64,000 nucleotides of DNA from positions 310,001-374,000 of the forward strand of contig OZ237766.1 in the NCBI GenBank assembly GCA_965178125.1, written 5' to 3'. Under the pieces are notes generated by a model. That model worked only from the letters and a program-made list of their open reading frames with translations, did not search any database and had not been told where the DNA came from. A program made the position numbers and the translations under genes. This DNA comes from Bilabrum cf. latius. Its lineage: Eukaryota. Every line of letters begins with the position of its first letter. Within the stretch, counting starts at the first letter, position 1. Shown piece after piece: positions 2,553 to 56,800 of the stretch.

Positions 2553-5500
2553 TCAGACTACACCCACCATCTTTGCTCTCACACCAGCCCCCATCCCCGC
2601 CAGGCAAGCCTCCCCCTCGGGTGCAGCCCGCTGCAGCGCACTCAGCAGCCCCAGCCCCAGCCCCCTCACCGCCCCAGCAGGCGCCCTCCAATCAGACCCC
2701 CCCCCTCCCCCCCCCCCTCCCCCTCCCCCTCCCCCCCCCGTGCACCGCTCCACCAGCATCAGCGATGCAGCCGCGTGACACCTCACACCGGCATCGTCGC
2801 ACAGCAGGCACGCCGCGATGCACTGCACCCCACCGTCCCACTGCGGCACTCGGGACAGGAACAATGGCACCGCCGCACCAGGGGCCGATGCAAAAGCACA
2901 CGCTACTCCCTATACCACACCTCCCAGACCCCCGAGCACATGCACCGCACATCGTCTCCCTGTGTCATCGCCAACATCATCACCACCGCAACAGCCCTCC
3001 CCTTCCCCCTCATCATCCCCCTCCTATTCTCCTCCCACCGCCACCAAATGAGGCATCATATCTTCGACTCCGATCGATTTCGCCACCTCCAACGCACGAT
3101 GCACCACCTCATCCGATCCAGCCCCACCCATACTTTGCCTGCCCCTCTCCACCGACCCCCGTCCAGCACCGAACGAAGGCGCCTTCAGCGCATCCACCGC
3201 ACTCGTCACACTCCCCATCCCCAGCGCAAGCACCGCAGCGCCCACCCGCCGCCTCCACACATCCACTCCCACCCCCACCCCCCCTTCCCCCCCCTGCGAA
3301 TCCCCCCCCACCACCCCCCTGCACTCCCCCGCCGCCACACGAGCCGCCTCCACCAGCGCACCCTCTAGCCTCGCACTCGCTCTCGCCCGCCTCTGGGGAT
3401 GCACCGCGATCCAGCGAGCCAGGTCACAAGCAGCAGCACTACCACCCCCTACACCTGCACCAACCGATGCTGAAGCTTCCGTGATGAAACCAGCGCTGGC
3501 CAGCAGCAGCCCGCGCGGCACCTCATCGATCGGAGCAAATGCATCACGGGAGACTGGCGACGACGATGCGCCAGCCGAGGAGGAAGACAAAGCCCCACCT
3601 GCAGCAGCAGCACTTCCACCGCCACCCCTGCCCCCACTCGTCACACCGGAAGCCTATCCACGGCCCCTCCCCCTGGCCTTCCTGGCGGCAGGGGCCAGAC
3701 CGGCCACGGACCCGCACACCATCAGCTGACCCAGCCAGTGCTGCTCCGTGGCCGATCGGAGCCATGCCTCACCAAACCGCAGCCCGCTGTCCAGCTGGTC
3801 TGCCAGTGGTGCGTCCAGGCAAGCACTCGTCACACCCCTCGGCGCCCTGGCGCGCAGGATCCGCCGGAGCTGGTCCGCCGCGCGATACTGCTCGTGGGTG
3901 GTTCCGCTGGATTGCGCGGCGTCCTGTCCGGGACCCACCGATGCTCCCATTGTACCCTTGTATCCATCGACCTCAAAATGCGCGGCGCCCCCCAGTTCCG
4001 CTCTCGCCCTGCCCACGGCCTCGTCAAGCGCGAGCGATGCCTCCTCCACGGTGGGGCCCACGCCCTGCTCATCTGCGGAACCGGCGCCGCGCTTGGATGA
4101 AGATGAGGATGCTGCCGACTTGCTACGATCCCCACCACCACCGCCGACCGTTCTATTGCCCCTGTCGCTGCCACCAGCACCGGCACCAGCAGAGTGCGGC
4201 AGTGCAGGCGGCACTGCCACCAGCGCGGCTTCCTTCCTCATGCCCTGCGGAGAAATCGAGAGTTTCCCCGCACTGACGTCAGCAGCCACGTCCCACCACT
4301 CCTGCCTCTCCGCAAACAGCGGATTCGTGCACCCGGCCACAAAGCCTCCCCCCGTTGAAAGGAACCCAGTGTCCGACAGAGACACGTACGGATACACTCG
4401 TTCGCTCACCCCCTCCAGCAACCCCCCCGCTGCCGCCCCCAGCCCGAGCACCAGCTCGCACAACTCCCTCGCAGGCCGTCCCTTGCCGCCCACCACCAGC
4501 ACACGGCGGCCCGATGCCACGGATCGGATCAAACTTGCGGAACCGGCGCCGCCGAACGCCCTCACGAGTGCGGCCAGGCTGCCGTTGCACGCCACGTCTG
4601 GCTCCAAGGATGGGTCCCGGGTGCATCGCACTGCAGCGGCCAATTTCCGACCCATGCCCTTGCCGCCCGCAGTGCCAGCTGCACCTGCATGCGATGCACC
4701 CAAACTAGATGCAGACGGTCTCGCCGGACCATCCGACGTGAGGTCCGCTGCCAGCATCATCTCGCGGTCCCACAGACGGCGAACCTTCACGAACCTCTCT
4801 CTGACCCCAGGCACTTTGGCGCAGTGCGGCAGCGAAGGGGTCCGCCCCGGCAGCGGAACCTACCCCCGCGCCGCGCATCGCGCCACCCAGTCGTCTTCCG
4901 GATTCGCCCCCGGCCCGGGCAGCAGAGGGGCAGCGAGGGCGGAGACGGTTGCAACCGACAGTGCCTCGAACAGCCACCGGGCCACAGACGGCGCCGCGGC
5001 GTCAGCGCCTACAGAACCAACCGAGCCGCGGCTGTCCCTGCGACCGAGCCCGCCGTCTGAGGTTCCGCTGGATCGCGCGGCGCCGCCCGCCATCAGGCTC
5101 CTTCTGTCCTCGTGCCACGTCCCTAGCGCGTCTCTCACAGCGGGCAGCATGGCATCTACCCAGGGAACAGTGGCACACACGGCCAGTGCGAGCATCTCGG
5201 CTCCCCTTGGGCAGTTGGGGTCGCGCCGGGTGCGGCAAACGGAGGCGCAATAGACTTTGCTGCGGGGCCTCGCGTGACCGCTGCCCACTATGTGTTGCAA
5301 CTCTACTCCAGATTGCGATGCATCTTCAAGCTTACTAGCACTTGATGCGGATGACCCAGAGTCTGAAATACCATCGCTAATACCCGAAGTTGGCGGCGGG
5401 CTGGGCTTGTCTGGACTTGCTCGGTTCGAAGCAGGTGCCCGAGGTTCGGGACTGCCAAGCAACCGAGGAGCATGAAGGGTGGCATCGCCCCTCGTTCTGC

Positions 5501-5870
5501 TTTTGGACTTCCGATTTGATTTCCCTGTACTTCGTTTGCTTGCTTCCGAGCTCGCTCCTCCTGCGGCTGAAGTGCGTGTTTCACTGGATGAGACGGGCGA
5601 TCGAGACCGGCCCGCACTGACACCACCACCCGCCACGGGCCAACCCTTTGCTTGAAACTCATCCGCAAATGATTCGGCCGGTAGGATAAAATATGTCGAG
5701 TCTTCATCTTCCTGGTGCCCGCCTTCTGGCAGCATCAGCTCTGCAACTGAACTTGAATCAATCCCGGCCGGGAGTACTGTCGGTTCACACGCATCCAGAA
5801 CGCTCCCACGACGAATATCGAAACGGGCGGCGAACACCCTTAGAATCGGCCAGCCTTCTGGAACTGACAT
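2553..5870 (-). CDS. AFI1: Afi1/MesA-like (DENN-related) protein with N-terminal Afi1 and SPA domains
   Basis: RVFAARFDIRRGS...AELMLPEGGH...STYFIL (Afi1-like) and RVYPYVSLS...GFVAGCTNPLF...WWDVAADV (SPA-like). ORFs 4860-5924, 3654-4814, 3024-3644 and 2553-2870 share one frame, joined through 4 TAG; ends TGA. First in-frame ATG at 5870. Confidence 0.8.
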
Positions 5871-6269
5871 GCCACCGGTTGCTGCAGCCAAAACTGTGTC
5901 CACGAATTCCCTGGGATCCAGCACGTCTTTGAGCCGGTGAGGTGCTTACGAATATTACTTGAAGGCCAATATAATAGGAATAATAGGCAGGGGACTCCTT
6001 CACTTGCAGTAGACTTGGAAATTTTATTCGGTGGATCCGCTGCTGACCGAACCTTCGCTAGTGAATTCGAAACGTTCGGCGTTTCGCAGCACAGCCACCC
6101 AGGTCCCCATTTGGGTGCAGCAAGGCCAATGTTGAGGTAAGATCTCTACAATAGCTCCAGCCCTGGATAGTGAACAAATGAAATGCTACGCGTTGACCAT
6201 GCAATGCACGATAATGTTTTGTTTCGTGCCGATACGCGCGAACATGCTGCTGCCAGCTTCTGCCCATCG

Positions 6270-9200
6270 ATGAACCGGCGATACCATCGACCCCTCGCTC
6301 ACCGCAGAAGGGCAGTATCGACGGCTGCCAGGCGGTTTAACACAAATACTCGTATGTTTGGAAGCTCTGCTAGGCGTATGGAGCGCGTTCTCGCAACAGA
6401 CCCCTTGGACAAGGCCGCTGCAGACATCCTGATTTCCAGGGGCCACGAAGTTGAGCTCTGGCCGTCCAGTCGTTCGCAAGAAGAAGTCATTGAGGCCGTC
6501 AAGGGATACGACGCCCTAGTTGTACGTAGGTAAGACGGGGTATACTCGCATATCGGCTCTTCGTGTAGTGCTAGCGGGTGCGATTCAGAAGCGTGCGACA
6601 CGTCTTGTGCCCGGCCTTGCAACTTGCCTTCGCAGTGGAACCCAGGTCACAAAGGAGGTGATTGATGCTGGTGATTCTTTGAAGATTATTGGCAGGGCTG
6701 GAACCGGGATTGACAACATTGATGTAGCCTCAGCCACCGAGAAGTGAGACGTGCCATTTGACTGCCGGATTATCGATTTGCGTCGCATCATGCACGCTTG
6801 TTTCGTTCGACCCCAGTGACACACTCCCATGCGTGCATGCCATTGATGCCATTTGGCGGCCCATGTCGGTCCAAATGCGTGGTGGGAGGGATTGCCGCCC
6901 GGTTGAGTTGCATCCACGCAAGGCGGAACAGTTGGGCTACGTTGCGAGGCAGTCGGCTTCATACAACGAATACTGCCCGTGCACAATTTCGAATGTATCG
7001 AATTTGCTAACCATAGTGCGCTAGGGCCTACGTATCGGCCTTAAAAGCCGGTCGTCGCACGCGGACCGCATTTTCACTCGTCACACAGTACCGTATCACG
7101 CAAGGCTCGCCACACCTCTTTCCATCGACCACTCGCTCCATCGCAGGGGCATCCTCGTGATGAACACTCCTGGAGGGAACACGCGAGCCGCCGCCGAGCT
7201 GGCCATCACGCTCATCATGGCGGTGGCCAGGCAGCTGCCCCAGGCCGTGGCATCGGTCAAGGAAGGCCGCTGGGACCGGAAGCTTTACATGGGCAGCGAG
7301 GTAGCGGGCAAGACCATCGGCGTGGTGGGCCTGGGGAGAATCGGCCTGGAGGTGGCGGAGTGGTGCAGGGGCGCGGGCATGGAGGTGGTGGGATTCGACC
7401 CGGTGCTCTCCAAGGCGGCGGCAGCAGAGGCAGGGATCGAGCTGCTTCCGCTCGAGGCACTGCTCTCGAGGAGCGATTTCATCTCTCTGCACTGCCCTTT
7501 GACCGCCGACACCAAGCACCTGATTGGGAGGGAGAGCCTGGCCCAGTGCAAGAAGGGGGTGCGGGTCATCAACTGCGCGCGGGGGGGGGTGGTGGACGAG
7601 GAGGCTCTTCTCGAGGGCATCAAGTCGGGGCACGTGGGCGGCGCGGCCCTGGATGTGTTCGAGTCCGAGCCTCCCACGGGGGCCGCCGCCGAGCTGGTGC
7701 AGCACCCCCTGGTGGTTGCAACCCCCCACCTGGGTGCCTCGACCCATGAGGCGCAGCTCACCGTGGCCAAGGCGGTTGCAACCCAGATCGCAGATGCCTT
7801 CGAGCATGGCAGGTACGTCGGCGTGGTGAACGCCTCGTTCATGGACCAGCTCAAGAAACCGGAACTTGTTCCCTACCTCTCCATCGCCGAGAGGCTTGGC
7901 CAGCTGCAGGCACAGCTCCTGCCCGGGGCACAACAGGTCAAGCAGCTCAGGGTGAGGCTGCAGGGGCCCGCCGTGGGGGAGCCTTCCGTGGCACAGGCCA
8001 TCAAAACTGCCGTCACGAAGGGCTTCCTGTCCTCCTTGTCCGCCAACTATGACGTGAACATGATCAACGCGGGCCAGGTCGCCAAGAGGGCCGGCCTGTC
8101 CGTGCAGGAGCTGACCAACGACTCGTCCTCCGGGACCTATTCCAACCTAATCACCGTGGAGGTGGACTCGTCTGACGCACAGGGCCAGCGGGGCGCCTCC
8201 CTCAGCGGCGCCGTCCTGAGCGGCGACCAGACCAGGCTCGTGGACGTGGATGGGTTCAGGGTGGACATCGACCCAGCGGGGCACATGCTCTTCTTCGAGA
8301 ACAAAGACAAGCCGGGCGTGCTGCGGGACCTGACCTCCGTGCTTGGGGAGGCTGGCGTGAACATCGCGTACTTTGGCCTGGGGAGGCACGAGGCAGGGGG
8401 CGAGGCGCTCGGGGTGGTGCAGCTCGATTCGAGTGTGAACGACGCCGTGCTGCAGCAGCTATCCGGAATCGATAACATGGAGCAGATCCGGCCGGTGCGG
8501 GTCACCGACGAGCGCGGCGCGGGCCGCATCCGGGCGGGGTCCCCTTACGATTCCGAGTCCACGGCCGAGGGCGGGCCCAGGCTGACCGTGCCGTCCTCTG
8601 CCGTGCGCAAGCCCGCGGCCCGCCCCGTGAGCCCCCAGTTCTCCTCCGGACCCACCAAGAAACGGCCCGGGTGGAACCTGAGCGCACTGGTGGACGCCGC
8701 GACCGGCAGGTCACACCGTTCCAAGATCGGCAAGGCGAAGCTGCGCGAGGCTATCGACGTGACTAGGAGGCTGCTTGACGTGCCCGATGACTACCGCGTG
8801 GGGGTGGTGCCCGCCTCCGACACAGGGGCCTATGAGATGGCCATGTGGACGATGCTGGGACAGAGGCCGGTGGATGTCTTCCACTGGGAGTCCTTCGGGA
8901 AGGGTTGGATGGGGGACGCTGGATCTCACCTTGGGCTCGAGGAGACCGGCCTGCGTGAGTTCAGCGCGCCGTACGGCGAGCTGCCCGACCTCTCGCAGGC
9001 TGACTGGAGCCATGACGTGTGCTTCACGTGGAACGGGACCACCAGCGGAGTAAAGGTCCCGAACGGAGATTGGATTCCGGATGATCGTGAGGGGCTGTCG
9101 TTCTGCGACGCGACCTCTGCCGTGTTTGCGCAGCACGTGCCCGTGCACAAAACCGACGTGCTGACGTATTCCTGGCAGAAGGTGCTGGGCGGCGAGGCGG

Positions 9201-9748: not shown

Positions 9749-10108
9749 GTCTTACGGTTTTTTTGGCTTCGTTTTACAGATGAACGTGGGCCCGTTGCAC
9801 AGATATACCATGAAACGTATCTATTGTCTGGCATTCGGAAGACTGCAAATTCGGTGACTTCACAGACGCACACGATAGGGAGTCCTGGGAGCAAGGCTCA
9901 GAGTACATGATAAAATCTGGATCTATGGATCTAGATACGTATAGGCGGCAGCTATCTCTTATGCCCAGACAGCGGCGTTGCAAATCTAGCGACCTGTGCC
10001 CAACTGCAAGTACGAATAACGCCGGTACCTAGCCGACGTTTCTCGTTATTGTTTGTGCTGGGCTATCCGTTTTATTCAGACTATTTAATCAAATCGGCCT
10101 GAAATGCG

Positions 10109-13100
10109 TCACTGCTAGCCTACTGGCAGCCCCTTCGCATGGATCAGCGTGAGCATGTCCACTTCCATCTGGTTCCGGGGCGGCCTACCTCCCTTCAACG
10201 GCGTCAAATGCCGTTTCCGGAGGTTGGTCAAGTAGTTCTTAATGCTCTGGGTCGGCAGCTTCGTTTGCTCCGCCAGCAACACTTTGGTGTCGGCATCTGG
10301 GTACGGCCGGTGCAGGTGAGCCACCACCCACGCGAGCAGCGTTTCAATGGCCTCCTCCGGGAGGAGCTGCTCGCCCTTGCTTTTCCTGCCTCGCTTCACC
10401 ATGCGATCCACCCGGACGACGCCTCCCTCCAATAGCGTCTGCGCTCGTTCGCTCTGCCGAATAAACGCCCGGCCCTGGTCGTTGCACGCGAACGACAGCG
10501 CAGTCCCGTCAAACTCCCCTCCACCGGCCGTGCCCATGCCGTGTTGATCCTATGATGAACCGGAAATCGGCATCACGGATTCACCAGGCAGCCGGCCGCT
10601 CATTCTCTTTCCCGAACCGCCTGATTTCCCTCTCGGCTTCGGTGGCCTACTGGTGGAAGCACTTCGAGTCAAGTCTCCCTTGCCCCTGCCACTGCCCTTG
10701 CCCTTGCCACTGCCCTTGGCCACATCATCATCACCACCAACACCATCGCCGGCCCTGCCTCTGCTACTAGACAATCTCCCCACTCGCCGACCGGCACGCC
10801 CAGCGCGACGACGGCCTCGATTGCGGCCGATTGCTGCCAGGGCGGTCCATTCCTCGTCCTCCTCATCCTCGTCCTCGTCCTCCAAATCATCCTCGTCCTC
10901 CAAATCATCCTCAACCTCCTAATCATCCATGGCTTCCCCCTACTCTTCGTCATCTTCCGAGCTGAAATCGCCATGTCTGCGATTGCCAGATCGCACCCTT
11001 TTCGGTTGTTGGCGGCGGCTAGCTCGACCTCGACCGCTCCTCCTCCTACCATCCCCGTCATCATCCCCTTCGTAGTACTCGCCGTCCTCGCGGTCCCCCC
11101 TTCGGCGCTTGCGACCAGCGCCCCCACTCGTCACACCACCTTCCACCCGGACCGTCCTCCGCAGCACCTTCCCGTCCTTAAGCCTGCCCCCCCTAGGGGG
11201 AGGGAGACGGACCCCCCCCTGGCGATGGGGAGCTCCAGCCTGCAAGGGCTGCTGCTGCTGCTGCTGGTGACGTGCCATGGATGAAGACGAAGATGAAAAC
11301 TGAGACCCTCGTGCCGGACTATAGCCATGGAGCTAAGGCACGTCCTCGATTCCATGTGACGAGTGCCACCCGGAGCCGGAAAGGCCCATCCCGTGGGGGC
11401 TGGGCATCTGCATGAGGCTGCTGACGCCTGGCGACTGGAGCCAGCCGTCCTGGGGTGCACTGCCTTGCAGCACACCAGCGTGCATTGGGTCGTCTGCGGT
11501 CGGGGCCTGGCCAGGTGCACCACCGTGCAGTGCACCCGTCCCGCTCGGCCTCCCCTGCTGCAGGCTGCCGTCGCTCGCGGTGGACTCGTGCGAAAGGTGC
11601 ATCGCACTGCTGCGCGGATACTGCACCGCCGCGCGCTGCATCGACTGGGCCCGATCGCCATGATAGCCCATGCTGTGATGCTGCTGCTGCTGCATCATGG
11701 CCTGCACCTGCATGCCGTGCACCTGCATGCCGTGCAGCTGTTGCAGCCCAGCGTGGTGCATAGCGGCAGCCTGAGGGGGACACGGAGCGTACCAAACCAC
11801 GGGCATCGGCACCGCAGTGCCGTGCATGTTACCCCCCATCCCGGCATAGGGTCCCACCGTTCCGCCAGACATTTGTCTGCCACTGCCGTGCACTGCACCC
11901 GCCAGGCTGCTGGACTCGCTCTCCGCTGATGGGCCCAGCCCGCCCTTCAGCTGCTGATGCTGCTGAGTGCTCCCGGACCGCCCCGCACTAACTGCGACTC
12001 GACTAGTGCGCGACCCACGCTGCGTGGGGCTGATGTTCCCCGGGGAATGGTAACGCTGGTCTTCCGGGCTGCTACCGTGCGATGCACCCCCACCCGTCGG
12101 CTGGTGGTAGCCCACGAGGGGCTGCGGGTGGGTGCCCATCACACTCGTCACACCCATGCGACGGGGTATGATGGTGTGACGAGTGACTCGGTTGGCAGAC
12201 ACTCCGAATCCCGTGGGGGGCGGGGGCAGGTGCCGGCCGATGCCACGCCCCGCATCGCCGTAAGATGAGGCGGCGACCGCTCCGGTTGCAACCGAATCAT
12301 CGGGCATCCCTCCGGATGAAGATGCATAGGTGTGACGACGATCAACAATGGATGCTCCCGAGCCCAATGCGGCAGAAACCCCCACGGGTCCATCCGGGTG
12401 CCGCTGCACGTGCTCAGCCCCCGTGTCATCGTGGTGCTGCGGGTCTGATTCGCTCTCCCACTCTCGGGAGCTGCCCGCCGTGGCCGCCGTGGGCTCACTC
12501 GTCACACCGTGAGAGCTCTCCGCGTGCTCCACGGGTGCTGTGGGGGCAATTCTCGCAGGCGAGAGTCCCAGGCCCCCCTGCCCCGACCCCTGCTGCCCGT
12601 CGGGATGACTGCCAGTGCCCCTCGTCCTGGCCGATTTCCTCCTGCGCTGCGCCGCGCCCTCCGCCCTGGCATCCACCCTTCGATCATGCGTGTTGGCCGA
12701 TGCATGGGTGTGACGAGTGCTGGACCCACCTGAGCTGCCCTCCATCCCGCTGGTCGAGTGGAGGGCGGAGAGAGCGGCCGGTTCGCCGTCGCACGCAACG
12801 CCACCTGCTTTGGCACCGCTCGCGCTTCCTGTCCTTTTAGCGGCGGAAGATCCGAGAGCAACAATAGATTCAGCGGATGGTTCTTCTTGTGTGACTGCAA
12901 ATTGCAACTGCGTTGCATTGCTGCTTTCCTGCTGCCTTCTGGTTGCTGCGGACGAGCGAGCATCACCGGTTCCGAGGCTGCTCGCACCTCGGTGTCCTTC
13001 CGTCCTGCGGCGTTTTCGCGCCTAACGGGCCATGACTGCATCATTTACGGAAATGCCACCTATGGCTAGTAGCTGCGCAGATGATGGAATTCGATTTCGC

Positions 13101-13234
13101 TGCTGAGCGGCCTCGAGTGCTGCTACCACGCCGTGCTCAAAGCTTGCTTGCGCGGCCGGTCGCTGCTGACCAGTTGAGCAAACATGCGAAATTCTCCGCC
13201 CTTGATTGAGCTGCGTGCTGCTGTCTGCGTTCAT
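10109..13234 (-). CDS. TALE-class homeodomain transcription factor, long low-complexity N-terminus
   Basis: C-terminal LPEEAIETLLAWVVAHLHRPYPDADTKVLLAEQTKLPTQSIKNYLTNLRKR. One frame from ATG 13234 through TAG at 13022, 11333, 10940, 10919, 10550, 10115 to TGA 10109. Confidence 0.82.
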
Positions 13235-14760: not shown

Positions 14761-16224
<1,464 letters not shown>

Positions 16225-17595: not shown

Positions 17596-17883
17596 GCGGG
17601 TGCATTGCACTGCTGAGCGCGGCACGGCCGCGATCGAGGTTGGCGCGTTGTGCAGCTGCATGCCAGACTGCCATGGGCGGGAATGTCTGCCGTTGGTTGG
17701 TCGGAGGTGTTCAGTTGTATGCATGTACAATCCATTCTTGAGGGGAAAGGAGATGCACCATTACCAGGCCACCGCGTAATGGTCTGGATCTTGGAAGTGG
17801 TTGCAACCTCATCTTCACAATTTACTCTGTCTAGGTTTCAAACGAGAACAAATTTGATCAAGCCGAATATACTATCGAAGGTG

Positions 17884-44300: not shown

Positions 44301-47300
44301 AGCCAAAGACAGGCGGCAGGTACAGGTGGGGACGGCGTTCCCGGGGTGTGATGCCCATCGCCTCCGAACGGACGACAGCACCAACTGTCGCTGCGGCCGA
44401 GCACCACGCGGATAATGCCAGCGGGCCCGTACCCTCAAGTGCTACCAACCTAGCCGGCGGTTCCATCGGCCGGGGCCCATCCTCCTTGGAGGCAGGCGGC
44501 TCCTTCCTCTTGGCGAGCGATTCAATGGAGAGCAGAGGCTCTGCCACTTCGCATAGCACCTGGATGCCGGCGGAGCACTCGCAAATTCTAGAGGCAAGGG
44601 AAGCGTACCAGCACTCGTACGCGGCGTGGACCACTGACCAGCTGTCCGCGTACTGCCGGCAGAACGCCTCCCCAGAGTTCGGACAGGCGATCTCGAACAT
44701 CAAGGACAAGAACCAGTGGACCATCGTGAATGACGCGGCATGTGCCGGGATGCTGCACGTGCTCAAGGTGGCAGTGGCAGCAGGTGTCGACGTCAATGCG
44801 AAGCGCACGGACGGGCACAGGCCGGTGCACGACTGCTGCATCCACGGACATGCTGACTGCTTGTCATTCCTTCTGGCCGTGGTGCAAGACGGTAGCACCG
44901 CGGACAAGAACGGGGACACTCCGCTGCACTGGGCGGCATTCCGGGGCCATCGCGCTGTGGTTGCCACGCTGCTTCGAGAAGGCGGCGTGGAGCTTGACGC
45001 AACCAACGCGGACGGTGGAACTGCCCTGCATTCGGCTGCAAACAACGGCAACCCGCTGGTGGGCGCGGAGCTCCTCATGGCGGGGGCAGACGCGAGTGCC
45101 GAAATGCTGGACGGGAACACTCCGCTACACAACGCGTCTTACGAGGGACACACCGCGTTCGTGGGCGTGCTGCAGCGGTTCGGCGCGAATGCCGTCAAGT
45201 CCAACCGCGATAGGAGGACGCCACTCCACGAGGCGTGCATGCAGGGGCACGCGGGTGCAGCACGGTGCCTGCTCGTGGGACCCCACACCGCGCCGGGTGC
45301 CAACACTCTCGAGCAGCAGTGGCAGAACGACCCGCTATCAGCGAAGCGATTTGGAGCAGGCAATCGACTCGAGGCATACGCAGGCGGAGTTGTCCCCAGC
45401 GGCGCACTGCGCTTCGATAGCTCGGAAGCAAGGCACAGCATCGCCACCGCCTCCAACTTGGCCGTGATTGACGTGGCCTCCACTGCGGCATAGGGACGGG
45501 CACAATCCTCGCCTGCCGGCATCCACGGGAAAGAGATGCCAAAGCAGAGCACCGACTCAAAGTCCAAGCAAGGCGATGCCCCGTCGGCAGCGAAATCGAG
45601 CCAAACACGGCGCACGGCCTCCACCAAGTGGGCTTCCCACGGGTCGGACGAGGACGAAGTCGACGAACATCTGGCTCGTGAGGCCGGCGCGGTCGTGCAG
45701 CAAGCAAGTGCTGCGAGATCCATCGCCAGCATTGCTGCGATGCAGCCGGCACGCCGGGTGCTAGGCGATGGAGTGCCTGGGAGCATGCCACCGCCTGCAT
45801 CCAGCTCTGATTTAGGTGAGCTGTTCGAACCGGCCTCCAAGTCGGGAACACGGACCTGCCGCCAGTCGCCGCTGCAGGCGCTGCCTCCCGCCATGCCCAT
45901 CAGCGGTTTCACGCCGGCAACCCAGGTGTCCGATCCCAACAACGCGGACACTGGCGGCGACACGTGCCTCCACTGGGCCGTCTGCCACAGCCACAATGAG
46001 GTCACGAGGATCTTGCTCGAGGCGGGAGTCAACACCAAGCAGATTAACACGGACGGCGGGATTGCGCTGCACGCCGCGGTCATCAACAAGCGGTGGAGGT
46101 GCTTGCAGATGCTGCTGGAGCACGGCGACGACGTCAACTCAAAGTTCATCCGGGTGGATCCCGAACGCGAATCGACCGAGGACTCTTGCCTGCACATAGC
46201 CGCTTCGGATGGCCTGGTGACCGGGGTGGAGATCCTCTTGGACAAGGGCGCAGACGTCAACGTTCGCAACTACAAGAACAGCACGCCGCTGCATGAGGCG
46301 TGCAAGCACGGCAACAAGCGGATCGCACAGATGCTGCTCGAGGCAGGCGCAGACGTATCGCTGGTGGACACCAAGGGCAGGTATGCCCTGCCCATGCTGC
46401 TGGTGACGCCAGGATTCCCGCTTACTGTTGACCTGCCTGACTCGAATAGCGACGAGGAAGAGGAAGGAGGTGGCGAAGGCGCCGGTACTGACGCCCAGTC
46501 GAGGGCTGCAAGCACCAGCAGCGATGGCTGGGTCGGGATCCGCACGGGGCGGGGACACTCCACGAGCCCGCTTCGGGTCCCTGGTCTCGCATCCACTCCA
46601 TCGGCCTGGCGCGGGTTCGGCGAGATGCATGGCGACGAGCAGTTCGCAGACGTGGAGCTGGTAGCAGCTGACGGCACCGCGGTCCGTGCCCATCGGGTTG
46701 TGCTTGCAGCCCGCTGCAGCCTCATGCACGCCCTGCTCACCAGCGGGATGCAGGAATCGGCAGCCTAGAGCATCCGCATGCAAATGTCGGGGGTGGCGCT
46801 CCGGGCACTCGTCGAGTACATGTACACGGGCGGACTGGATGTGGCCCGCATCGCTGCCGAAGTCTCCGCAGCGCCAGGCGATTCGAGCCACGCCACTATC
46901 TCGAGCCGACTGCTTGCGGCCCCTGAAGGCTCTCAGGGCCCTTCCCTCTCCGAAGAAGACGTCATGGAGATATGCGAGGTGGCAGACCAGTATGACGTGC
47001 TCGGGCTGAGGCTCATCAGCGAGGCGCTCTTGGTACAAATGGCCAGACTAGACGCGGTGCCTAGGCTCTTTGCCTTTGCGGAGCAGTGCAGACTGCTGCG
47101 GCTCAAGTCTGCATGCGTGAACACAGTATTGGCACAGGCAAGCCTGGAGGTGCTGGGCCAGCGAGGCAGGGAACACGCCAGGATGGCAGAGGCAGAGGCA
47201 GAGGCAGGCAAGCGCGCCAGCACTGCTTCCTCCCCAGGAAAGGCGCACGGCGGGAAGAGCAGCCGCAGCATGGGGCACCACTCGCCGAGCGCAGCCAGCA

Positions 47301-47641
47301 CAATGGCAACGGCAGCTGCAGCCGCAGCAAACGGTTCCGCGGCGCCCCCGAGGCATGGGTCACCCGTCGTTGCGAGCAGCAAGCCGCACCCGATGGAGGA
47401 ATTCGGTGCCCTCTTTCACTTTCTGCTGCACGAAGACATGGGCGCCCACAATGAGTCGGTTCTTGGACAGCTGCAGGGAAGGCTCACGAGCTCCTCGAGG
47501 GGGACGGGAGGCGCATTTGGGAGGCGGGTGTCCAGGAAGAGGAGGGAGAAGCGAGCGGCTAGTGGGGCTGGGGATGGCTCGGGGTCGGGCGGTGCTGCCG
47601 CCTCTGTTGCGGCGGGGGTAGCTGGGTAGGTGCGCGGCTGA
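41355..47641 (+). CDS. Large ankyrin-repeat and BTB/POZ domain protein (~2,000 aa)
   Basis: Exons 41355-41435, 41530-41637, 41732-47641; many TPLH ankyrin motifs and BTB motif FADVELV...VRAHRVVLAAR...GMQES...VEYMYTG. In-frame TAG at 42488, 42581, 42737, 45491, 46766, 47627; ends TGA. Confidence 0.87.
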
Positions 47642-47776
47642 GTCTGGCACATGGGGGGATGGGCGAGTTGAGAGAGGCAGCACAGTGTTTGAGTGCGCTG
47701 ATCGCTCCCACATATGGATTCATTTCACAGCAATGTTACCTGACCGCGCACGTAGCCACCAGAGTCCTCCACGTCA

Positions 47777-50641
47777 TCACTCGTCACTGTCGCTATCCCC
47801 ACCCTCTGGCTCCACGGAATCAGCCGATGTGACGAGTGCATCGTTCGCTTCCTGCATCCAACCCGACGCCGCATCGGCCACACCTGTCCCAGCATGCCCG
47901 CCCCCCCCGCCGATCCTAGCCGCCTCCGGTCTATGCCTCCACCCATCGAACGCTCTCGCGGCATCCTTGAGGTACCCCAGCATTGCAGGCCCGCTCTGGA
48001 GGTGGGCGAGCACGGGCATGCCGCGGGGCACCTGCTGCACGCCTCGGTCGCAAGGCATGTACCCGCCCTTCCCTTGTTCCCTGAGGATCGGTGGCCTAGT
48101 TCCGTCTGGCCTCTCTCCCCTCACGTCGATCTTGAAGGACCACGCGGATTCCGCCCCCGGCCTAGCCAACTCACCAAGCCTGGCGTGGCGGGGCACGTGG
48201 CCCCACGCGGTGAGCAGGCCCCTGGATGCACTCGTCACACCGCTGGCGGACGACCCTGCTGACCCGGTGCTCGGTCCAGCCCGCCCCGCGACCAGCAGTT
48301 CGCGAGGGGCCGCCCGCCCTGACAGCGGGCAGGGCAGCCGAGGCAGCGAGCAGTGAGCCGCAAAACGGCACCGGCTGCGCATCATGAACTTATCCCACTG
48401 CGGCGTGGCGGCGTATGCGGAACCAGAGGCGCCGCGCAGATGATCCGCGGGGGTAACAGCAGGTCTATCACGCGGCGCCGCGGAACCCGAAGCACCCGCG
48501 GCGCCGCGCGGTACCATTCCAACGGAACCTCCCACCCCCCTTGCGACCAGCACGTGCGCCACGGGTGGGTGCAGCCCGCTCTCTGCACCACCGTGAGCTG
48601 CACCCTGTATCAGACCCATCTGGTGTTCTCTGAGGGTTCGTTCCGACCTGTGCCACATCGGCGCCATGTCCCGCGCGGGCAAGCCGTGCGGAACCGGACC
48701 CCCGCGCGCGGCGTCAAGCTGTCTCTAGATCGCCGCCATGCCTTCGGTCGACCCAGGAAACGGCGCGGCCACCGAAAGGCCCAAAATCTCGGTTCCGCTG
48801 CGCGGCGCCGCCCCGCCCAGTAGCTGCCCCAGGCGGGTGGAGGGGGACAGGGAAGCGACGCCGCCGGAGGTTCCGCTACTGGATGCGCGGCGACAGGGGC
48901 TGAGCAGGGCGTCCAGCGCAGTTCCAGCCACCCATCCCTGTACCACCGAACTTCGAAGAACGTTCGCCGTGCTCTGCAGGAACGGCAGCGCGTGCAGCTC
49001 CTCGTACACCCTCACCCCCTTTGATGCCCTGCCGGTTGCAACTGCTGCTCTCGCCTGCGCCTGCGCCTGCGCCATCGAGGCCAGCGCGGACAGCGACAGG
49101 GGCACCACGGCCGACGAATGTTCCCTGAGGTTCGCCAGTGCCAGGGAATATCCCGCCCGGGCCAGCCACTGCCTGCCCCCACTCGTCACACCCGTACCCT
49201 TCACGTGAGGTTCCGCAGCCGGCTCCGCGCTCACGCCCCACCCGTGCCCTCCATAGGCACCAGAACTGTAGCTACCAGCACCGTATGCGCCAGCACCACC
49301 GTCGATTCCACCGCTGAACCTTCCATCGGTCTCCCGCTCTCCGGCGTCGTCTCCATCGCCATCATCCTCGTCCTCGTCATCAGCAGCCACCCCGTCACCC
49401 AACAGCACGGACAGCATGGCAGATTTCGGAGCCTCGTCGCGGATCGCCTCTGCGGTTGCAACCGACAGCCCACCCCATGCCCCCGACGCGTCTCCCAGCA
49501 GCACAATGCCCTGCACCCCGTCGGCCGCCTCGAGCAGCTTTCTCACAGAGTCGCCCACCTCGTCCCTTTGTTCCTCAGGGAACAACGACCCGCCCTCCAG
49601 CGCGGTGCGGCCATCCCCGTACACGGAAAAACTATCTCCCGGACCCGGAGCCGGAAGTGACACGGTGCCGCCCTGCGGGACCCCACCCGTCCACAGGCTG
49701 CTCCAGCTGTACCCGGCGAGGCACGGGGCGCCGCGCCGAGCGTTTGCGGAACCGAAGGGTGAACCACTTTGTTTGCTCGAACCCGCACCACTGCCAGAAG
49801 AATCCTCGTCTGGGTGTCTTCCTGCGGGACTGGCCCCAGAATGCGCGGCGCCCCGCGCCTCCTCAAGCGCTGCCGCGAAGCCGCCCATCTCGTCGTCGCC
49901 GCCGGCCCCACCGTGCGATGCACCCGCATACTATCCTCCGACATACCCTCCGTAGCTGCCTGTGCTGCCTGTGCTGCCGCTGCCAAGAAATCCGCTTGTG
50001 GCCCCACCGAACGAACCTTCGCCGTAGGTTCCATCCCCTCTCTCAAGCGCCCTCCTCCTCGTCTCCTCCATAGCATCATCACCACCATCATCACCATAGT
50101 AGCCACCATCATCACCTGAGTACCTTTCTCCACTGGCCGCAGCTCGCTTCTCTGGATGATCCCACCCGCCGGCCTCCGCGCTGGCCCCACCGAACACGCC
50201 ACCGAACCCGCTGTCCCAGCCGGTGCCTGTGCTCGCTCCTTGCAGAGCACTGACGCCAGAATCGGGCTTCTCTTCCGCCACACCACTGCCAGTAAAAACG
50301 CCTAGAGGCCCTACGCTCGTGGATAAATCAATAAGTGCCATGCGAGGCCTCCACTGGGCGACAATCTGCGATGATTCGGATGGATCCATTGCAGGCATTT
50401 CGAAAGTAGTCATTGGTAGTGTACGACACTGACCGATGCACGATAGACAGAATTTAATTTATCTTACACTCTCTGCGGATTCGAGGAATTCGTGAGTGAC
50501 TGCAAGATCAACATCGGGGTGAGCCCCTGCCGCCCAGTCCGCATGAAGGAGCTCTGATTGTGCCGCAGAGAACTGCGTTCCGGTCATGCATCCCAACGGA
50601 CCGACGCAAACTGTTATGATAGCCCGTGAAGATCCACTCAT
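47777..50641 (-). CDS. MSTO1: Misato/DML1 tubulin-FtsZ-like protein
   Basis: AIITVCVG...GTQF, WRPRMALIDL, DSVRKLLEAADGVQG...GAWGG. 39-nt GT-AG intron 50467-50429; TAG at 49931 and 48725; ends TGA. Confidence 0.8.
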
Positions 50642-50841
50642 AGTGACTTGAATTTATACTAGACAGCCGAAAATACGGAGGAACGAAAGGGCAACTGCGG
50701 AGGAGGTTGCAACCGGCGTGCCGATGGACCAGGATCGAATTCTACGTGTCCGCAAGAACTGCACACATCACTGGCGGTACAGCATCATCTGCTGTATTTC
50801 TACGGGTTTCCAGTACATTAGGTACCACTCGGTACCGGTGC

Positions 50842-53800
50842 ATGAAAAGAAGCCGACCAAGTAGCGTTGAAACTAGCAAGGACTCCACCGAAACGGAGGG
50901 CTTGTCGCCGGAACCAGCAAGGAAGCGCAGGGCCATCGAACAATCAGCAGCAGCAGAATCAGCCCCCAAATCTACAACACAAGTACCAATGAGTGATTCA
51001 GACGCATCGTAGGCAATCGTTCCGGTGCACCGATCGCCACCAGGCACTTCTGAGCTTTCGCCTGGGCGGGCATCCACCGGCGGCGCGCCTGCGCTGGTGC
51101 TTGCCGCTGCCGCGCCTTCTTCCGAGCTTCAGCTGGTGCCTCATTTCGCTGCAGACGCCGCATCCGCCGCTAACGCTCTGATCCGGCACAGATCGGTCTA
51201 TGTCGGCGATGCGAGCGGTCTTGCCGCCACTCACACGGTGGACGGCGACGGCTCAGCCACAGGCGACGATGGGACCGGCGGGGGAGAATTCGACCGGCGA
51301 GCCGTCACGGAAGTGCTCACCTGCGGAGACGGTGCCGAGGGCCAGCTCATGCTCGGGCGAAAGAGAAGGAGAGCAAACCGGTTCCAGGCCGTGCACAAGC
51401 TCACCGCCTCCAATGTAGTGGGGCTATCGGGCAGCGCATTCTCATCGGTTGCAACCACTGAGACGGGGGAGTTGTTCCTCGGGGGCTGCAACGACGAGGG
51501 CTAGCTCGCGCCCGAGCGAGCCAATGCGAGCGGCGGTAGCGGCAGCAGCAGCGGCAGCAGAGGCGGGGACGATGACGATGAGTACCTGCTGAAGCCAGTG
51601 AGGCTTGATGCACTGGCGGCACAGCGGATCGTGCAGGCATCCGCGGGGGAGAACCATGTGGCCGCGATCAACCAGAGCCAGAAGGTCCTGACCTGGGGCT
51701 CCAACGCCACCTTCGCCCTGGGGCACACGGAGAACGAGCCGTTCAGGGTGCCGCCGCGCGTGATGAGGGGGCTGGACCGCTACCGTGCAGTGCAGGTGGC
51801 ATGCGGGGACACGCACACGGTGGTGCTGACCAGTCTAGGGGAGGTGTTCACGGCGGGGACCGGGGCCATGGGCCAGCTTGGTCACGGGGAGAGATCGGAT
51901 CAGCAGGTGGCCAAACGCGTGGACGCTCTGGTGGGTACGCCCGTGTCCCAGATCGCCGCGGGCTCGCAGCACACTGTGGCGGTGTCCGCCTCGGGGCTGG
52001 CCTTCGCCTGGGGAAGGAACAAGAGGGGGCAACTCGGAATCGGAACCCTGCAGACCAAGTCGGCGGCCTACTCGCCGCAGCGGGTCGTCGCCCTCCCCGA
52101 GCTGGTGCAGCAGGCTGCGGCTGGGGAACAGCACACGATCTTCATCACGAGGCTGGGCAACGTGTACGCCTGCGGGCAGGGAGACCACGGGCAACTCGGA
52201 ATCGGAACGCCGGCGCCGCGCATCACGGACGGAATCTGCTCAGCGGCGGCGGACGGGAGTAGCGGCAGCGGCACGTCTCACTCGTCACACCCCCTCCACA
52301 CGGTGGACCGCCCCGTTTTGATCCGATCCCTCCAGGGCAGGCACGCGCGGCAGGCCGCCTGCGGCCGCAGGCACTCGCTGGTGCTCATGCAGAGCGGGCA
52401 GCTGTGGGGGTTTGGCTCCAACGAGCAGGGGCAGCTGTCACTCGGAGATGAGATCAAGGAGGCTTTCGACCCTGTGAGGATAGAGGACGGGAGCGACTGC
52501 GGGGTGTTCAACGTGGCATGCGGCGCGAGTCATTCCGTCGTGGTGAGGGTCATTCGGGGGTCGGTTCTGTCGACGCCGCCGGGGTCACTCCCCCGCGGGT
52601 CCATGGGATTCGTGGGAGCACAGACGCTGCAGGTACTGGCCAAACTGGCCAGGGAACAGGAGGAACGTGTGACGAGCGCCACAGCGGGACCCCGCGGGGG
52701 CGGCGGCAGGGGCGGGCTGAAGGGCCTACTGGCCGTTCTGCGGGAGGTGTGGAGCAGTCCCACGTGCTTAGCAGGGTCCTTTAGGCTGCAGGACGTGAGC
52801 GAGAACGCCTTCATCGAAGACAGGGCCCCTGGCTCCAAGTCGGTCGTGGAGGCTCTCCGGAGGGCACACGGGGAGGCACCCACGCGGGCCCTTATGGACC
52901 TCCCGATCTCCTCCAGTGCCCTCGATGACGCTCTGCTCGTCGCGGATGCGAAGCCGGGGCTGCTGGCCCTGCCGGCCCCGCCCTCGGGTGTCAGTGGTGT
53001 GACGAGTGAGGAAGGCAACGGCGCGGCGTCGGGGGCCGGGGACGGCGGGCCGTCGTCGCCCGGTGGTGGCGCTGGTGACGTCAGCGGTGGCGGAACCACG
53101 ACTTCTGCTAGCGGCGGTGTGACGAGTGCATCCAGTGGCCCAGAAGGCGTGGACGAATCCCTCTGGCGGCTGCTGGAAGACATGAGAGACCAGCGGGCGA
53201 GGAACGCGCAGGAAGCAGCCGCCCGCATGGAGCGGGAGAGGACAGAAGAGGCGAGCCAGGGGAGGGTGCACTCGTCACACTAGAACCGCGGTGGCAGCGG
53301 CGCCGGCAGCGCCGGGGAAGCCGACGATGATTTCGACGAGGCCATTTTCCTGGAGGCGATCGACGGTTTGGCGGAGGAGCTGCAGGAGGCGGTGAGGCAG
53401 AGCGGGCCGTTCGGGGCTCTCACCAGCAGCGAACGTTCGTCAGCGGGCGGGGGTAGTTCAGCAGGGTAGGTCGGGGAGGGTGGTCAGAGCGGCGGTGGTC
53501 ATGCCGGCCGTGGATCCGATCCAAATGTGGCGGAGATGGCCCGCGATTCGATGGAACGGGAGGAGCGTGAGCTATCAGGCGGCGAGACTGGGGCCAGCAG
53601 CGGTTTTGGTGTGACGAGTGCAGTTGGTGCCCCCGGACTGGCACGTTTCTCTTCCACCGGTACGGTAGAAAGCATAGATGAAGACTAGCCGTAGGGCGGG
53701 TCGGGCGGCAAGCGTGCCGGCATCGCTGCTTCTTCGGGGTCTGGCGGTGGCAGCGGCAGCGGCACACGTGGGGGCGGCGTGAGCCTGTCCATCCGAGCTA

Positions 53801-56800
53801 GCTCGGGTGCATCGCACGGTGGTGCGGGTGGTGTCGATCTCGAAGACGTAGAAGGCGCCAGCACGCCATCCCTCATGGCTGGCGGGGCCTCAGGGATGCG
53901 GGAGGGTCGCAGGACACCGAGGGACGGGCCCGTGGGACTTGCGGCCGAGAGGGTCGGCACACCGGATGGAGTGATTCAGAGCAGCAGGGCGGCTCCGGGT
54001 GAGATGCCTGTGGGGGCGGCTGCGGCCGTCCTGTCCGGACCATCCTCAGCATCGGCATCGGCATCGTCCGCATCGTCGGCTGGGCAGCGGGCAGCTGGGG
54101 ACGGCGCTTCGGCAGGGGCTGAGACCGGGTCCAGCACCGGCGAACCTACCGTTGAGCCTCTAAGGAACAGCGGTGTGACGAGGGTGAAGAGCCTGCCTCT
54201 AAGGAACAGCGGTGTGACGAGGGTGAAGAGCCTGCCTCGGCCCCGGTCCGGGATCCTTGCACTGCCACCGCTGCCACCCAGCCCAACAGGCCAGCAGCAG
54301 GCCATGCAGGACGACGCAAGCAGTATGGGCAGCAGCAGCGCGGGGCTTGACGGTGAGGTGGATGCATCGCACGGTGGTGCAGACTCCCAGGCGATCGTTC
54401 CGATCTCATCCGATCCTGACGTCATCGTCGGGGGCCCGTACCGCTTCCCCGTCCCGCAGAAGCCTTGGCCCAGGCCCCGCACCGTGTATATCCAGCCATC
54501 CCCCGCTGAGGAATTGATCGGCGCCAGGCGGCCGTTCCTGGCCCAGCCCTTGGTGGCCGCGCGACTGAGCAGCTCGTTGCTGGATGTGACGGGCCTGAAG
54601 GACGCCATGAAGGCATGCTTCGCCGCGGGCAAGGAGCAGGTGATAGACACGCTCAGCAAGGCCCACATCGAATGCCTCAAAGCCCTTAGACCAGTGGCGA
54701 GCAAGATCAAGCAGCCAGATCCATTGCGTGCCATCATGTGCATCTTCCAGAGTCCCGTGCTGACGCTGTTAAAGCCAAGCAAGGCCTCCCTGGAGACAGT
54801 CTCGCGGCTGGCCGAGGTCGTGCTGGCCCTGCCCCAAGCCTCCAGGAAGCTGCTCCTCGCGTGGGTGGCCGAGGATGTATCCGGAGCCATATTTGAGAAG
54901 CACTATGTGAAGCCCATGCAGCGGCACCTGAGCGTGCTCATCAAAGCCACGCTGATGCAGAGGCAGTCCGTGCAGGTGGCTCCTGGGATCAGCGCACTTC
55001 GGGGCATGGAGATGCTGGTGGTGGTGCTGGGTCACCTGTTCGACCTGAATGCAGACGTGGCGAGGAGGGCGAGGGAAGTGGCCGTGTACGGGAACGCAGA
55101 AGCGGCGGAGGCTGCGAGGATCGGAGCGGTGGAGGGTGCAGCGCACGATGGTGGTGAGGGCGGCGCGGCGGCGGGAGGAGCCGCCGCTGCCTCCTCCTCT
55201 GGTCCGTCCTCGGGAGCCGGCAGCGGGGACGTTGGGGTGGATTCTAGAAGTGCTGCATCGAGCCAAGGTGTATCGCATGGTGGTGCAGCGGCAGGAGTAA
55301 TTGCAGCACTTCCCAGCACGGCGGGAGGTACCCTGGGGAAGGTGAAGAGGCTGCCCACCCGTGCCAGCAAGGCAGACGCGATCCGCACGGCATCAAACGA
55401 GCTAAGGAACGCCGCCGCTTTGGCCACCTCTCAGGTGCCCCACAGCCAGGAACGGATCTTCGCAGACGAGGTGCACGATTCGGATTCTCTGGGCGGCAAG
55501 GTGTGGGGCCTGGTGCCTGCCTCGTCCTTCAACAATCCAACCGTGTGCGAGCTGCCAGAGGGCGTGCTGCAGCACGACTACAGGCTATGGCGGCAGCAGC
55601 GGTTTCAGATGCGGACCAAGACGTTCACTCTCTGCGCCTATCCGTTTCTCATGGACGCAGCAACGAAACGGAAGGTGCTGTCATTCGAAGCGGCTCTCCA
55701 GATGCAGATGCAGATGCAGAGTGCCATGGCGAGGAGTCTCTTCGTGCGAGAGACGCCATACCTAGTGGTAGAAGTGGGAAGAGAGAACCTTCTCCGGGAT
55801 TCGATCAACATGCTCGCCTCGCAGCACCCTTCTTTCCTCAAGAAGCCGCTGCGGGTCATTTTCCGGGGGGAGGAAGCGATCGATGCCGGTGGTGTAACCA
55901 AGGAGTGGTTCCAGCTCCTGCTGCAGCTGATCCTCGATCCATCCTACGGCATGTTCGAGCAGGTCACGGGAAGCAGGCTCGTGTGGTTCAGGAAGAATTC
56001 AATGGCGGACCCCGCCGAGTTCCGGCTGATCGGCATCATTGTGGGGCTGGCTATCTTCAACGGCGTGCTGCTGGACGTGGCATTTCCCCGCGCGCTATAC
56101 AAGAAGCTTCTCGGGATGCCAGTCGGTCTGACAGACCTGATCGAGCTGGACCCCGATCTGGGCCGTGGACTGTTGCGGGTGCTGGAGTACGGCGAGGACG
56201 ACATGGAGGACGTGTTCTGCCTCGATTTCACCGCCCAATACCGCGAGTTCGGCGAGACCAAGAACGTGGAGCTGATCCCAGGCGGGGCGGATATCGAGGT
56301 GTCGCAAGCAAACAAGCGCAAGTACGTGCGAGCATACGTGGACTGGTACCTGAATCAGGCTGTCAAGCAGCCTGGTTTCAAAGATTTCGCTCACGGATTC
56401 TCAATGGTGGCAGACGGGCCGTCCCTCAAGCTGTTCGAGCCCGAGGAGCTTGCACTACTTGTGGCAGGCTCGAGCGAATTGGACCTGAGGGAGCTAGAAA
56501 AAGTGTGCGAGTACGACGGCGGGTTCACCGCGAGGAGCAAGACGGTCGTTGATTTCTGGGCCATCGTGCACGGCTGGCCGCAGAAGCTGCAGAAGAATTT
56601 GCTTTTGTTCGCTACGGGCTCTGCCAGGGCGCCCATCGGAGGTCTTTCGAAGCTCAACTTCAAGATTCAGAGGAATGGGGGAGACACGAGCCGACTGCCG
56701 ACGGCGAGCACCTGCTTCAATACCCTGCTCCTTCCCGAGTACGGCAGCAAGGGCAAGATGGAGGAGCGGCTCCGCACGGCGGTGCAGAACTTTAAGGGTT

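Follow-up and report, generated by a model that had tools for sequence, protein, structure and literature searches.

Short exact DNA words over-represented in the genes of a 64-kb eukaryotic window with TAG as a sense codon

The stretch of DNA analysed here (64 kb of Bilabrum cf. latius, contig OZ237766.1, positions 310,001 to 374,000; hereafter the window) is characterized by a 12-nt word, CACTCGTCACAC (W1; extended form CACTCGTCACAC(C), 13 nt), that recurs in exact copies, mostly within genes. The window is eukaryotic in content, with genes for 3-phosphoglycerate dehydrogenase (PGDH), ankyrin, RCC1, HECT, papain-type protease and Afi1/SPA proteins, and also for a Misato-like tubulin domain, sphingosine-1-phosphate (S1P) lyase, a TALE homeobox protein, a CLU/TPR protein and a DDE transposase. 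We built the gene models from open frames, Pfam matches and one intron that is supported by RNA.

All in-frame 'stops' that split recognisable genes are TAG (27733, 45491, 46766, 51502 and 53281 on the plus strand; 4860, 15187 and 48725 on the minus strand), and evident gene ends are TGA or TAA. When TAG is read as sense, the fragments fuse, giving an RCC1+HECT protein of 2055 residues and an Afi1/SPA protein of 1130 residues. In the conserved RCC1 motif 'GQLG' a TAG takes the place of the Q codon, a single diagnostic site that makes glutamine the likely meaning. Judging from the sequence, TAG is a sense codon in the nuclear genes of the host, probably for glutamine. Reassignment of UAG only is described for a few eukaryotes (PMC5304391). 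No tRNA genes were found in the window, and hence no TAG-reading tRNA was seen there. This variant code had been missed by an earlier note on the same DNA, and it alters the gene models. A GT..AG intron of 102 nt (50366-50467, minus strand) lies near the 5' end of the Misato-like gene and is spliced out in the contigs of sequencing runs X5 and X7, which shows that those runs hold RNA; no other clean intron-like joint was found in the 9.5 kb compared with run contigs. Several W1 copies are transcribed and not spliced out. A role of W1 as splice signal was rejected, as five copies are read through unspliced in RNA contigs.

A pattern search of the window returned 18 exact W1 matches, 13 on the plus and five on the minus strand, as well as five copies with one mismatch (11354, 47827, 52667, 54173 and 54212), confirming every exact and near copy that the earlier note had reported. 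Taken together, these are 23 sites (13 plus, 10 minus) against a shuffle mean of 0.38. Dinucleotide shuffles contained 0.02 exact copies on average, and none of 100 reached 18. The earlier note had also proposed Markov and codon-preserving nulls, and the enrichment persists under both. Markov simulations (100 per order) yielded 0.0 exact copies per window at order 3 and 0.18 at order 5. When synonymous codons were shuffled inside each gene so that its protein stayed the same (300 shuffles in one run, 200 in another, on the same gene models as the observed count), the mean was 0.14-0.16 copies and no shuffle exceeded 2, whereas the real genes have 16-17; codon permutation, global or in 30-codon blocks, gave no copies. 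In a census of all 8- to 16-mers of the window, W1 and its sub-words rank first at each k from 10 to 13. Mismatched sites show a sharp spectrum, with 18 exact, five one-off, three two-off and 30 three-off sites, the last two counts matching uniform expectation (about 4.5 and about 45 by our own arithmetic). W1 therefore stands as a discrete word, without a degenerate family around it.

The sequences that flank the 18 copies are unrelated, apart from a C that comes next in 13 of them. Contigs from runs X5, X6 and X7, which belong to studies other than the best holder of this DNA, show 0 differences over 52279-53609, and the W1 copies are therefore no assembly artefact; contigs of run X8 matched the window merely in short, dissimilar pieces. 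Adapter or primer carry-over, or a repeat family such as the ends of transposons or of miniature inverted-repeat transposable elements (MITEs), has next to no probability as an explanation. An inverted pair of copies at 12142 and 12174 and several alternations of plus and minus copies do resemble tiny elements with 13-bp terminal inverted repeats, but the interiors and flanks of such elements are unrelated, the frames stay open through every copy, the transposase gene holds none, and the contigs of the three other studies agree with the window. As a candidate of its own, a MITE or transposon footprint was likewise rejected, since neither common flanks or interiors nor a target-site duplication were found.

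Most copies are arranged in a few genes. The Afi1/SPA/Avl9-like gene (2553-5945, minus strand) has three, all on the plus strand, at 3200-3211 (read SVTSA, in the GVTS frame), 3635-3646 (GVTSG) and 3824-3835 (GVTSA). Within the TALE-homeobox (Homeobox_KN) gene (10109-13246, minus strand) exact copies lie at 11125-11136 (plus, GVTSG), 12142-12153 (plus, GVTSV), 12174-12185 (minus, VTRHT), 12496-12507 (plus, GVTSE) and 12708-12719 (minus, STRHT), and the near copy CACTCGTCACAT at 11354-11365 (minus, HSSH). With five exact copies and one near copy this gene is the densest in W1, and its product ends in a C-terminal homeodomain of the TALE class. The inverted pair at 12142 and 12174 can form a 13-bp stem around an 18-nt spacer (-28.2 kcal/mol, z = -2.5). 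S1P lyase (26626-28602) carries a single copy at 28181-28192 (plus), which reads ALVTQ within a helix free of alignment gaps. The Misato-like gene (47777-50365, minus strand) has the near copy CACTCGTCACAT at 47827-47838 (minus, ALVTS) and exact copies at 48229-48240 (plus, GVTSA) and 49180-49191 (plus, GVTSG). In the HERC-like gene (RCC1+HECT, 50647-56814) exact copies are found at 52279-52290 (plus, HSSH, in a Gly/Ser-rich loop of the RCC1 region), 52997-53008 (minus, GVTSE), 53117-53128 (minus, GVTSA), 53269-53280 (plus, HSSH) and 53609-53620 (minus, GVTSA under TAG = Q). The same gene holds the near copy CGCTCGTCACAC at 52667-52678 (minus, RVTSA) and two near copies CCCTCGTCACAC at 54173 and 54212, which belong to a 39-bp tandem duplication (54173-54223, minus, GVTRV).

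The copy at 53269 does not lie at a gene end, since the in-frame TAG that follows it at 53281 is read as sense. Under the TAG-sense code 16 of the 18 exact copies are coding, so that the earlier description of W1 as mostly coding holds for more copies than it had counted. One of the two others, at 14755-14766 (plus), overlaps the TGA (14761-14763) with which a papain-like gene on the minus strand (14761-15600) ends, as had been described. The second, at 7075-7086 (plus), precedes the start of PGDH homology (7133) by 47 nt; as this start matches about residue 86 in solved PGDHs, an intron is likely around 7075. The intronic position that the earlier note had given for this copy is thus probable.

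The exact coding copies are read as GVTS (11), TRHT (2), HSSH (2) and ALVT (1), the several frames that had been noticed before. The frame that would encode Cys-Asp-Glu-Cys/Trp has 0 copies, and the frame with a stop is used solely at a real stop. Wherever the gene models (about 40 kb) contain a peptide that W1 could encode, it is encoded by the word (18 of 18; 16 exact, two one-off) and never by other codons. Among seven word-bearing genes, 25 of the 30 compatible tripeptides use the exact word codons, namely VTS 11/14, RHT 3/3, LVT 2/2, SSH 2/4 and VAT 7/7, the last belonging to a second word, W2, which is described below. These codons are rare, AGT, GTT and GCA making up 10%, 11% and 22% of the codons for their amino acids. 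In the word-bearing genes VTS occurs 14 times against 0-4 for its permutations, and VAT seven times against 3-5, without a clear excess. The words therefore both impose peptides and recode existing ones. Segments around W1 are poor in order-promoting residues (0.162, compared with 0.271 over all positions; 0 of 20000 resamplings were as low), and such segments are where proteins can accept a foreign tetrapeptide. The signal thus resides at the level of nucleic acid, as the earlier note had held, with word codons saturating the compatible peptides.

A peptide motif (GVTS, HSSH or VAT), or a by-product of codon usage in low-complexity proteins, would suit the dominance of the GVTS frame and the location of copies in Gly/Ser-rich segments. 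We consider it very improbable, as protein-preserving shuffles return 0.14 copies against 16 for W1 and 0.03 against 7 for W2, permutation in 30-codon blocks returns 0, the codons are rare ones, and the same 12 bases encode four peptides and also occur over a stop codon and in a probable intron. W1 is a word of double-stranded DNA, present in both orientations and at coding, probable intron, stop and outside-model sites, and W2 is palindromic.

We also considered an element acting in RNA, in which W1 sense and antisense copies, and W2, would base-pair inside one mRNA or between different ones, or serve as targets of guide RNAs. Nearly all copies lie in transcribed DNA, the palindrome is identical in every transcript, multi-copy genes contain both orientations, the pair 12142/12174 folds as a 13-bp stem, and two thirds of the W1 copies have one orientation relative to transcription. 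The remaining third runs the opposite way, and the three copies of the Afi1/SPA gene all point one way and have no partner in cis. Moreover, the window had 0 Rfam matches at gathering score, and exactness at all 10-13 nt is unusual for RNA pairing, which tolerates G-U. W2 would look alike whether it is read as RNA or as DNA. Action at the RNA level is on this evidence improbable, and so are the roles that could be suggested for it, such as localisation, condensation or modification.

W1 is one of several words, which the earlier note had missed, and W2 acts alike. W2 is the palindrome GGTTGCAACC, often found as CGGTTGCAACCG and in a longer form as (C)GGTTGCAACC(G). Its 10 copies in the window are dispersed and have unrelated flanks, and 6 of the 7 coding copies are read xVAT. 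Genes contain seven copies, as opposed to 0.03 in synonymous shuffles. They are located at 4947-4956 (Afi1/SPA gene, SVAT), 7714 and 7774 (both within 7714-7783 of PGDH, VAT), 12284-12293 (homeobox gene, SVAT), 49454-49463 (Misato-like gene, SVAT), and 50705-50714 (LQ frame) and 51447-51456 (SVAT) in the HERC-like gene. Further copies lie outside the gene models at 2385-2394, downstream of the stop of the papain-like gene at 14643-14652, and downstream of a cathepsin gene (16555-17595) at 17799-17808. W3, GCGCGGCGCC, occurs 12 times in the window (3980, 4083, 5075, 23633, 26608, 27888, 48428, 48500, 48800, 49727, 49843 and 52212), with 10 copies in genes against 0.84 in synonymous shuffles (a ratio of about 12). 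W4, GGTTCCGC, occurs 17 times, with 16 copies in genes against 2.4 (a ratio of about 7). Copies of W3 and W4 are dispersed with unrelated flanks. Often two such copies are neighbours at a distance of up to about 20 nt, in arrangements that vary, and the peptides that they encode in several frames are rich in Gly/Ala/Ser. A joint k-mer census of the window and the metagenome loci described below yielded the further shared words CTGCCATGC and GTGCGATGCA.

Only one class of genes carries the words. W1 is absent, at up to one mismatch, from the ankyrin gene (41642-47641), the DDE transposase gene (20401-22779) and the CLU-TPR gene (57611-64000), in agreement with the earlier note, and all four words are absent or nearly so from the ankyrin (6 kb) and CLU-TPR (6.4 kb) genes. 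In five other genes none of the five compatible tripeptides, all of them in the ankyrin gene, uses word codons, compared with 25 of 30 in the word-bearing genes (Fisher p = 7.8e-4). The GC content of the ankyrin gene (0.64) and its GC content at third codon positions (GC3, 0.72) equal those of word-bearing genes, so that base composition fails to explain the absence, and we rejected it as an explanation.

This distribution also bears on whether the words are ordinary cis-regulatory sites, that is, transcription-factor sites inside the gene bodies of a compact genome. A length of 10-13 bp would suit tandem Myb, homeodomain or four-finger zinc-finger readers, and a TALE homeodomain protein is the product of the W1-richest gene. 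Regulatory sites are usually degenerate and promoter-proximal. Here, up to 6-8 copies occur per coding region and hardly any between genes (16 of 18 are coding), degenerate variants are nearly absent (18, 5 and 3 sites at zero, one and two mismatches) and compatible codons are saturated. We accordingly give this explanation a low probability. The TGAC core within W1 is a candidate half-site of TALE (and also bZIP) proteins, and the density of W1 in the homeobox gene may be a coincidence. W1 also contains a CpG.

The earlier note had named limitation to this window as an outcome that would speak against it, and W1 is found repeatedly elsewhere. A scan of metagenome contigs with one 14-mer containing W1 gave at least 121 loci. 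Among the matches listed, nine loci share a contig-name prefix and thus one metagenome; four of the nine hold two to six W1 copies, and together the nine contain 8 copies beyond those through which they were ascertained. The other 112 metagenome loci among the matches listed have just the selecting copy each, and 120 loci from a scan of viral contigs contain one copy each. Frames running end to end through the nine loci appear solely if TAG is sense (1337, 1184, 978, 799 and 712 codons, with 4-17 TAGs), and their W1 copies are read GVTS (13), HSSH (4) and ALVT (1). The companion words are also enriched there, with counts in the nine loci (21.7 kb) and in the other loci (233 kb) among the matches listed of 3 and 0 for W2, 8 and 8 for W3, and 10 and 7 for W4. 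These loci were picked by W1 alone, and the vocabulary thus belongs to a lineage and not to the window. The earlier note had suggested a genome-wide protein-binding mark on core genes that serves chromatin, replication, recombination or self-marking; of this reading, the level of nucleic acid, the restriction to one gene class and the occurrence outside the window are supported, and a binding protein and the process served are putative.

Two of the nine loci, L018 (878-919 and 1652-1711) and L019 (625-651), contain arrays with a 15-bp period in which W1 plus two bases is repeated in two to four units. The arrays are read (GVTSD)n or GVTSEGVTS and lie in long TAG-sense frames that encode very acidic, Gly/Ser-rich proteins. 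Telomerase-like additions were rejected as a source of W1, as solitary copies never extend to the 15-mer of the arrays. A micro- or minisatellite was rejected as well, the 18 window copies being dispersed and the 15-bp arrays occurring just in L018 and L019. The same metagenome contains tandem paralogues on one contig (L019 1-1300 and L020 1950-3440) whose first ~450 nt show 97% identity, with strong divergence beyond them. Both W1 copies are identical in the 97% part, and a 10-nt core is kept in the diverged part (about 50% identity). The pair may reflect recent partial gene conversion.

Several words were written in place into conserved sequence. The W1 copy of S1P lyase encodes ALVT in a conserved helix that aligns to solved lyases without gaps, and ALVT is kept in an 84%-identical relative (P0001) from another assembly, where adjoining residues differ. 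Both W2 copies of PGDH likewise lie in conserved segments that align to solved homologues without gaps. Insertion can therefore not be the general origin of the words. Data on the conservation of sites consist of ALVT in this one relative and of the one paralogue pair. Searches for orthologues of the RCC1 part returned best matches of just 22-36% identity, and a search with an Afi1/SPA fragment returned no match. A wider search with the 1130-residue Afi1/SPA protein gave domain-level matches and three short fragments (P0246, P0334 and P0335), the best stretches of which miss all three W1 sites. A scan of metagenome contigs guided by the HECT protein gave 601 pattern matches with no relative among them.

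These alignments weigh on a further explanation, in which W1 would be a micro-insertion, a unit of 12 or 15 bp that enters in frame, templated or mobile, and is tolerated in disordered segments and stop-free frames. Examples would be repair templated by RNA or by an oligonucleotide, or a selfish element of very small size. The length of the word is a multiple of three, the arrays of L018 and L019 consist of two to four 15-bp units, VTS stands at 14 against 0-4 for its permutations, W1 favours disordered segments, and a ratio of 18 exact to five one-off copies would fit young insertions. On the other side, the W1 copy of S1P lyase and both W2 copies of PGDH lie in ungapped alignments, ALVT is also present in the 84%-identical relative, and VAT is word-coded in seven of seven cases though no commoner than its permutations. 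Moreover, no target-site duplication or common flank was found among the W1 copies, and the C at the 13th base in 13 of 18 is left unexplained by insertion of a 12-mer. We regard micro-insertion as rather unlikely.

The words are neither copies of a mobile element nor a peptide motif. We posit, at about even confidence, that they are lineage-specific words kept by a putative sequence-specific reader, through selection or through a drive of gene conversion. Point substitution has written the words into a subset of genes. Compatible peptides that were already present are spelled in the exact word codons, rare ones included; in permissive, disordered segments the word has brought in a peptide of its own, mostly GVTS, and harmful frames are avoided. 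Substitution to near-saturation, imposed peptides and avoidance of frames together call for a directional force on the DNA sequence. The reader may be a protein, or less likely a guide RNA, that favours word-bearing alleles. Multi-zinc-finger and Myb proteins and the TALE homeodomain protein of 10109-13246 are candidates for it, and self-marking, recombination or chromosome architecture may be the process that it serves. Either each site would add to a function at the level of the chromosome and be held by selection, or gene conversion or repair would be biased towards the word, which would amount to molecular drive. From the near-saturation and the cost of imposed peptides we infer that drive fits somewhat better. 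Words would accumulate with the time that a gene has resided in the lineage, and this would explain the word-free ankyrin gene despite its similar GC content; the same account may extend to the transposase and CLU-TPR genes.

A number of points weigh against the proposal of a reader and its words. The reader itself remains putative and is deduced from sequence. The sample, this window and the 21.7 kb of metagenome loci, is small, and evidence across species is at the level of the peptide alone (ALVT in P0001), while the alignment of the diverged paralogues is anchored by W1 itself. W2 is secure as a companion word, but W3 and W4 are only probably so, as they are GC-rich and have lower ratios. 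The skew towards the GVTS frame, which accounts for 11 of 16 coding copies in the window and 13 of 18 in the metagenome loci, and the shared orientation of about two thirds of the W1 copies relative to transcription leave room for a component linked to RNA or peptide. Finally, the (GVTSD)n arrays of L018 show that slippage or insertion also multiplies W1.

The proposal could be taken further to an active writing system, in which near-cognate sequences of resident genes would be turned into exact words and word density would serve as a mark of 'self' or residence. In such a system dedicated readers would guide biased conversion or templated repair, and the mark would tell genes of long residence apart from incoming DNA, transposons and families that have expanded recently. 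A eukaryote would then have its own form of the self-marking known for Chi and for the DNA uptake sequences (DUS) discussed below. We hold this extension to be possible but unlikely.

W1 and its companions share features with several known systems. A search of the literature found the words merely in primers or unrelated sequences, and no report of a word vocabulary in the nuclear genes of cellular eukaryotes was found in the full-text literature, with subscription journals and the supplements of genome papers outside the search. Chi is an over-represented word of core genomes that acts as a 'self' mark for a repair nuclease; it is 5-8 nt long, strongly strand-skewed with replication and read by RecBCD or AddAB. 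Eukaryotes are not known to have either complex, and W1 differs from Chi in its length and in its strand distribution (13 plus and five minus, or 13 and 10 with near copies). The hotspot motifs of PRDM9 in mammals are words of 12-13 bp that are read by a zinc-finger array and shaped by biased gene conversion. Such motifs erode, whereas W1 and W2 accumulate, and the conversion bias would have to run in the opposite direction. Rickettsia palindromic elements are selfish DNA in frame within coding genes, consisting of insertions of 100-150 bp that are conserved throughout. Here only 10-13 bp are common, and at least three copies were substituted in place.

The closest systems are bacterial, and W1 and its companions match them in most of the respects compared. 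Among these systems are the DUS of Neisseriaceae and the uptake signal sequences (USS) of Pasteurellaceae, which like W1 are short exact words (9-12 nt) on both strands and mostly within genes (PMC2817400; PMC1939737). As one of these sources describes, uptake sequences make the tripeptides encoded by them more frequent, tend to positions of poor conservation and do not occur in genes that lack homologues or are of recent origin, and their accumulation is explained by molecular drive (PMC2817400). W1 resembles them in its over-representation (18 copies against 0.02), its permissive positions, its preferred frames and the raised frequency of its peptide. Unlike them, it is found in a eukaryote (HECT, RCC1, TALE homeobox, a spliced GT..AG intron) and not in a competent bacterium, and is accompanied by introns, a change of the nuclear code, several unrelated words and near-saturated codons (25 of 30); the host is not known to possess machinery for DNA uptake. 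The cyanobacterial palindrome HIP1, GCGATCGC, is described as hyper-abundant, with about one or more copies per gene, within and between reading frames (PMC5861425). By the same account HIP1 has no peptide or RNA role and is conserved, so that selection is taken to maintain it, possibly for a role in chromosome structure (PMC5861425). W2 is also a palindrome written into genes, but W1 is longer than HIP1 and not a palindrome. The eukaryotic host places the words outside both DUS/USS and HIP1, and for HIP1 the lack of a palindrome in W1 does so as well.

Bacteria have hyper-abundant exact words within their genes (uptake sequences, HIP1, Chi), which relate to DNA uptake, repair or chromosome organisation. 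If the pattern seen here were genome-wide, a force would fix rare codons at nearly all compatible sites and impose peptides on disordered regions, and a sequence-specific reader or a conversion bias would await discovery in a eukaryote. Word content would then provide a simple sequence test of how long a gene has resided in the lineage, and the host would offer a tractable eukaryotic case for setting molecular drive against selection.

Some further observations concern the surroundings of the word-bearing genes. The CLU-TPR gene (57611-64000, minus strand) has a GC content of 0.52 and a GC3 of 0.51, and TAG makes up 32% of its Gln codons (37 TAGs), compared with 8% in the pooled word-bearing genes, which include the HERC-like gene (50647-56814, plus strand). 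The latter, 800 bp away, has a GC content of 0.64 and a GC3 of 0.74, so that composition shifts sharply between the two. A change of CAG to TAG is synonymous under this code, and C-to-T pressure at CpA would leave a high-TAG trace such as that of the CLU-TPR gene. The transposase domain is of the DDE_1 (pogo/Tc5) type, in a plus-strand frame (20401-22779) of 792 codons with 9 TAGs. At the start of the window (1-2000), units of 402 bp are repeated five times in tandem (anchors at 266, 668, 1070, 1472 and 1874), and the minus strand has related segments at 29720-30242. The loci of this repeat contain no words; they are probably the modular repeat loci that the earlier note had mentioned.

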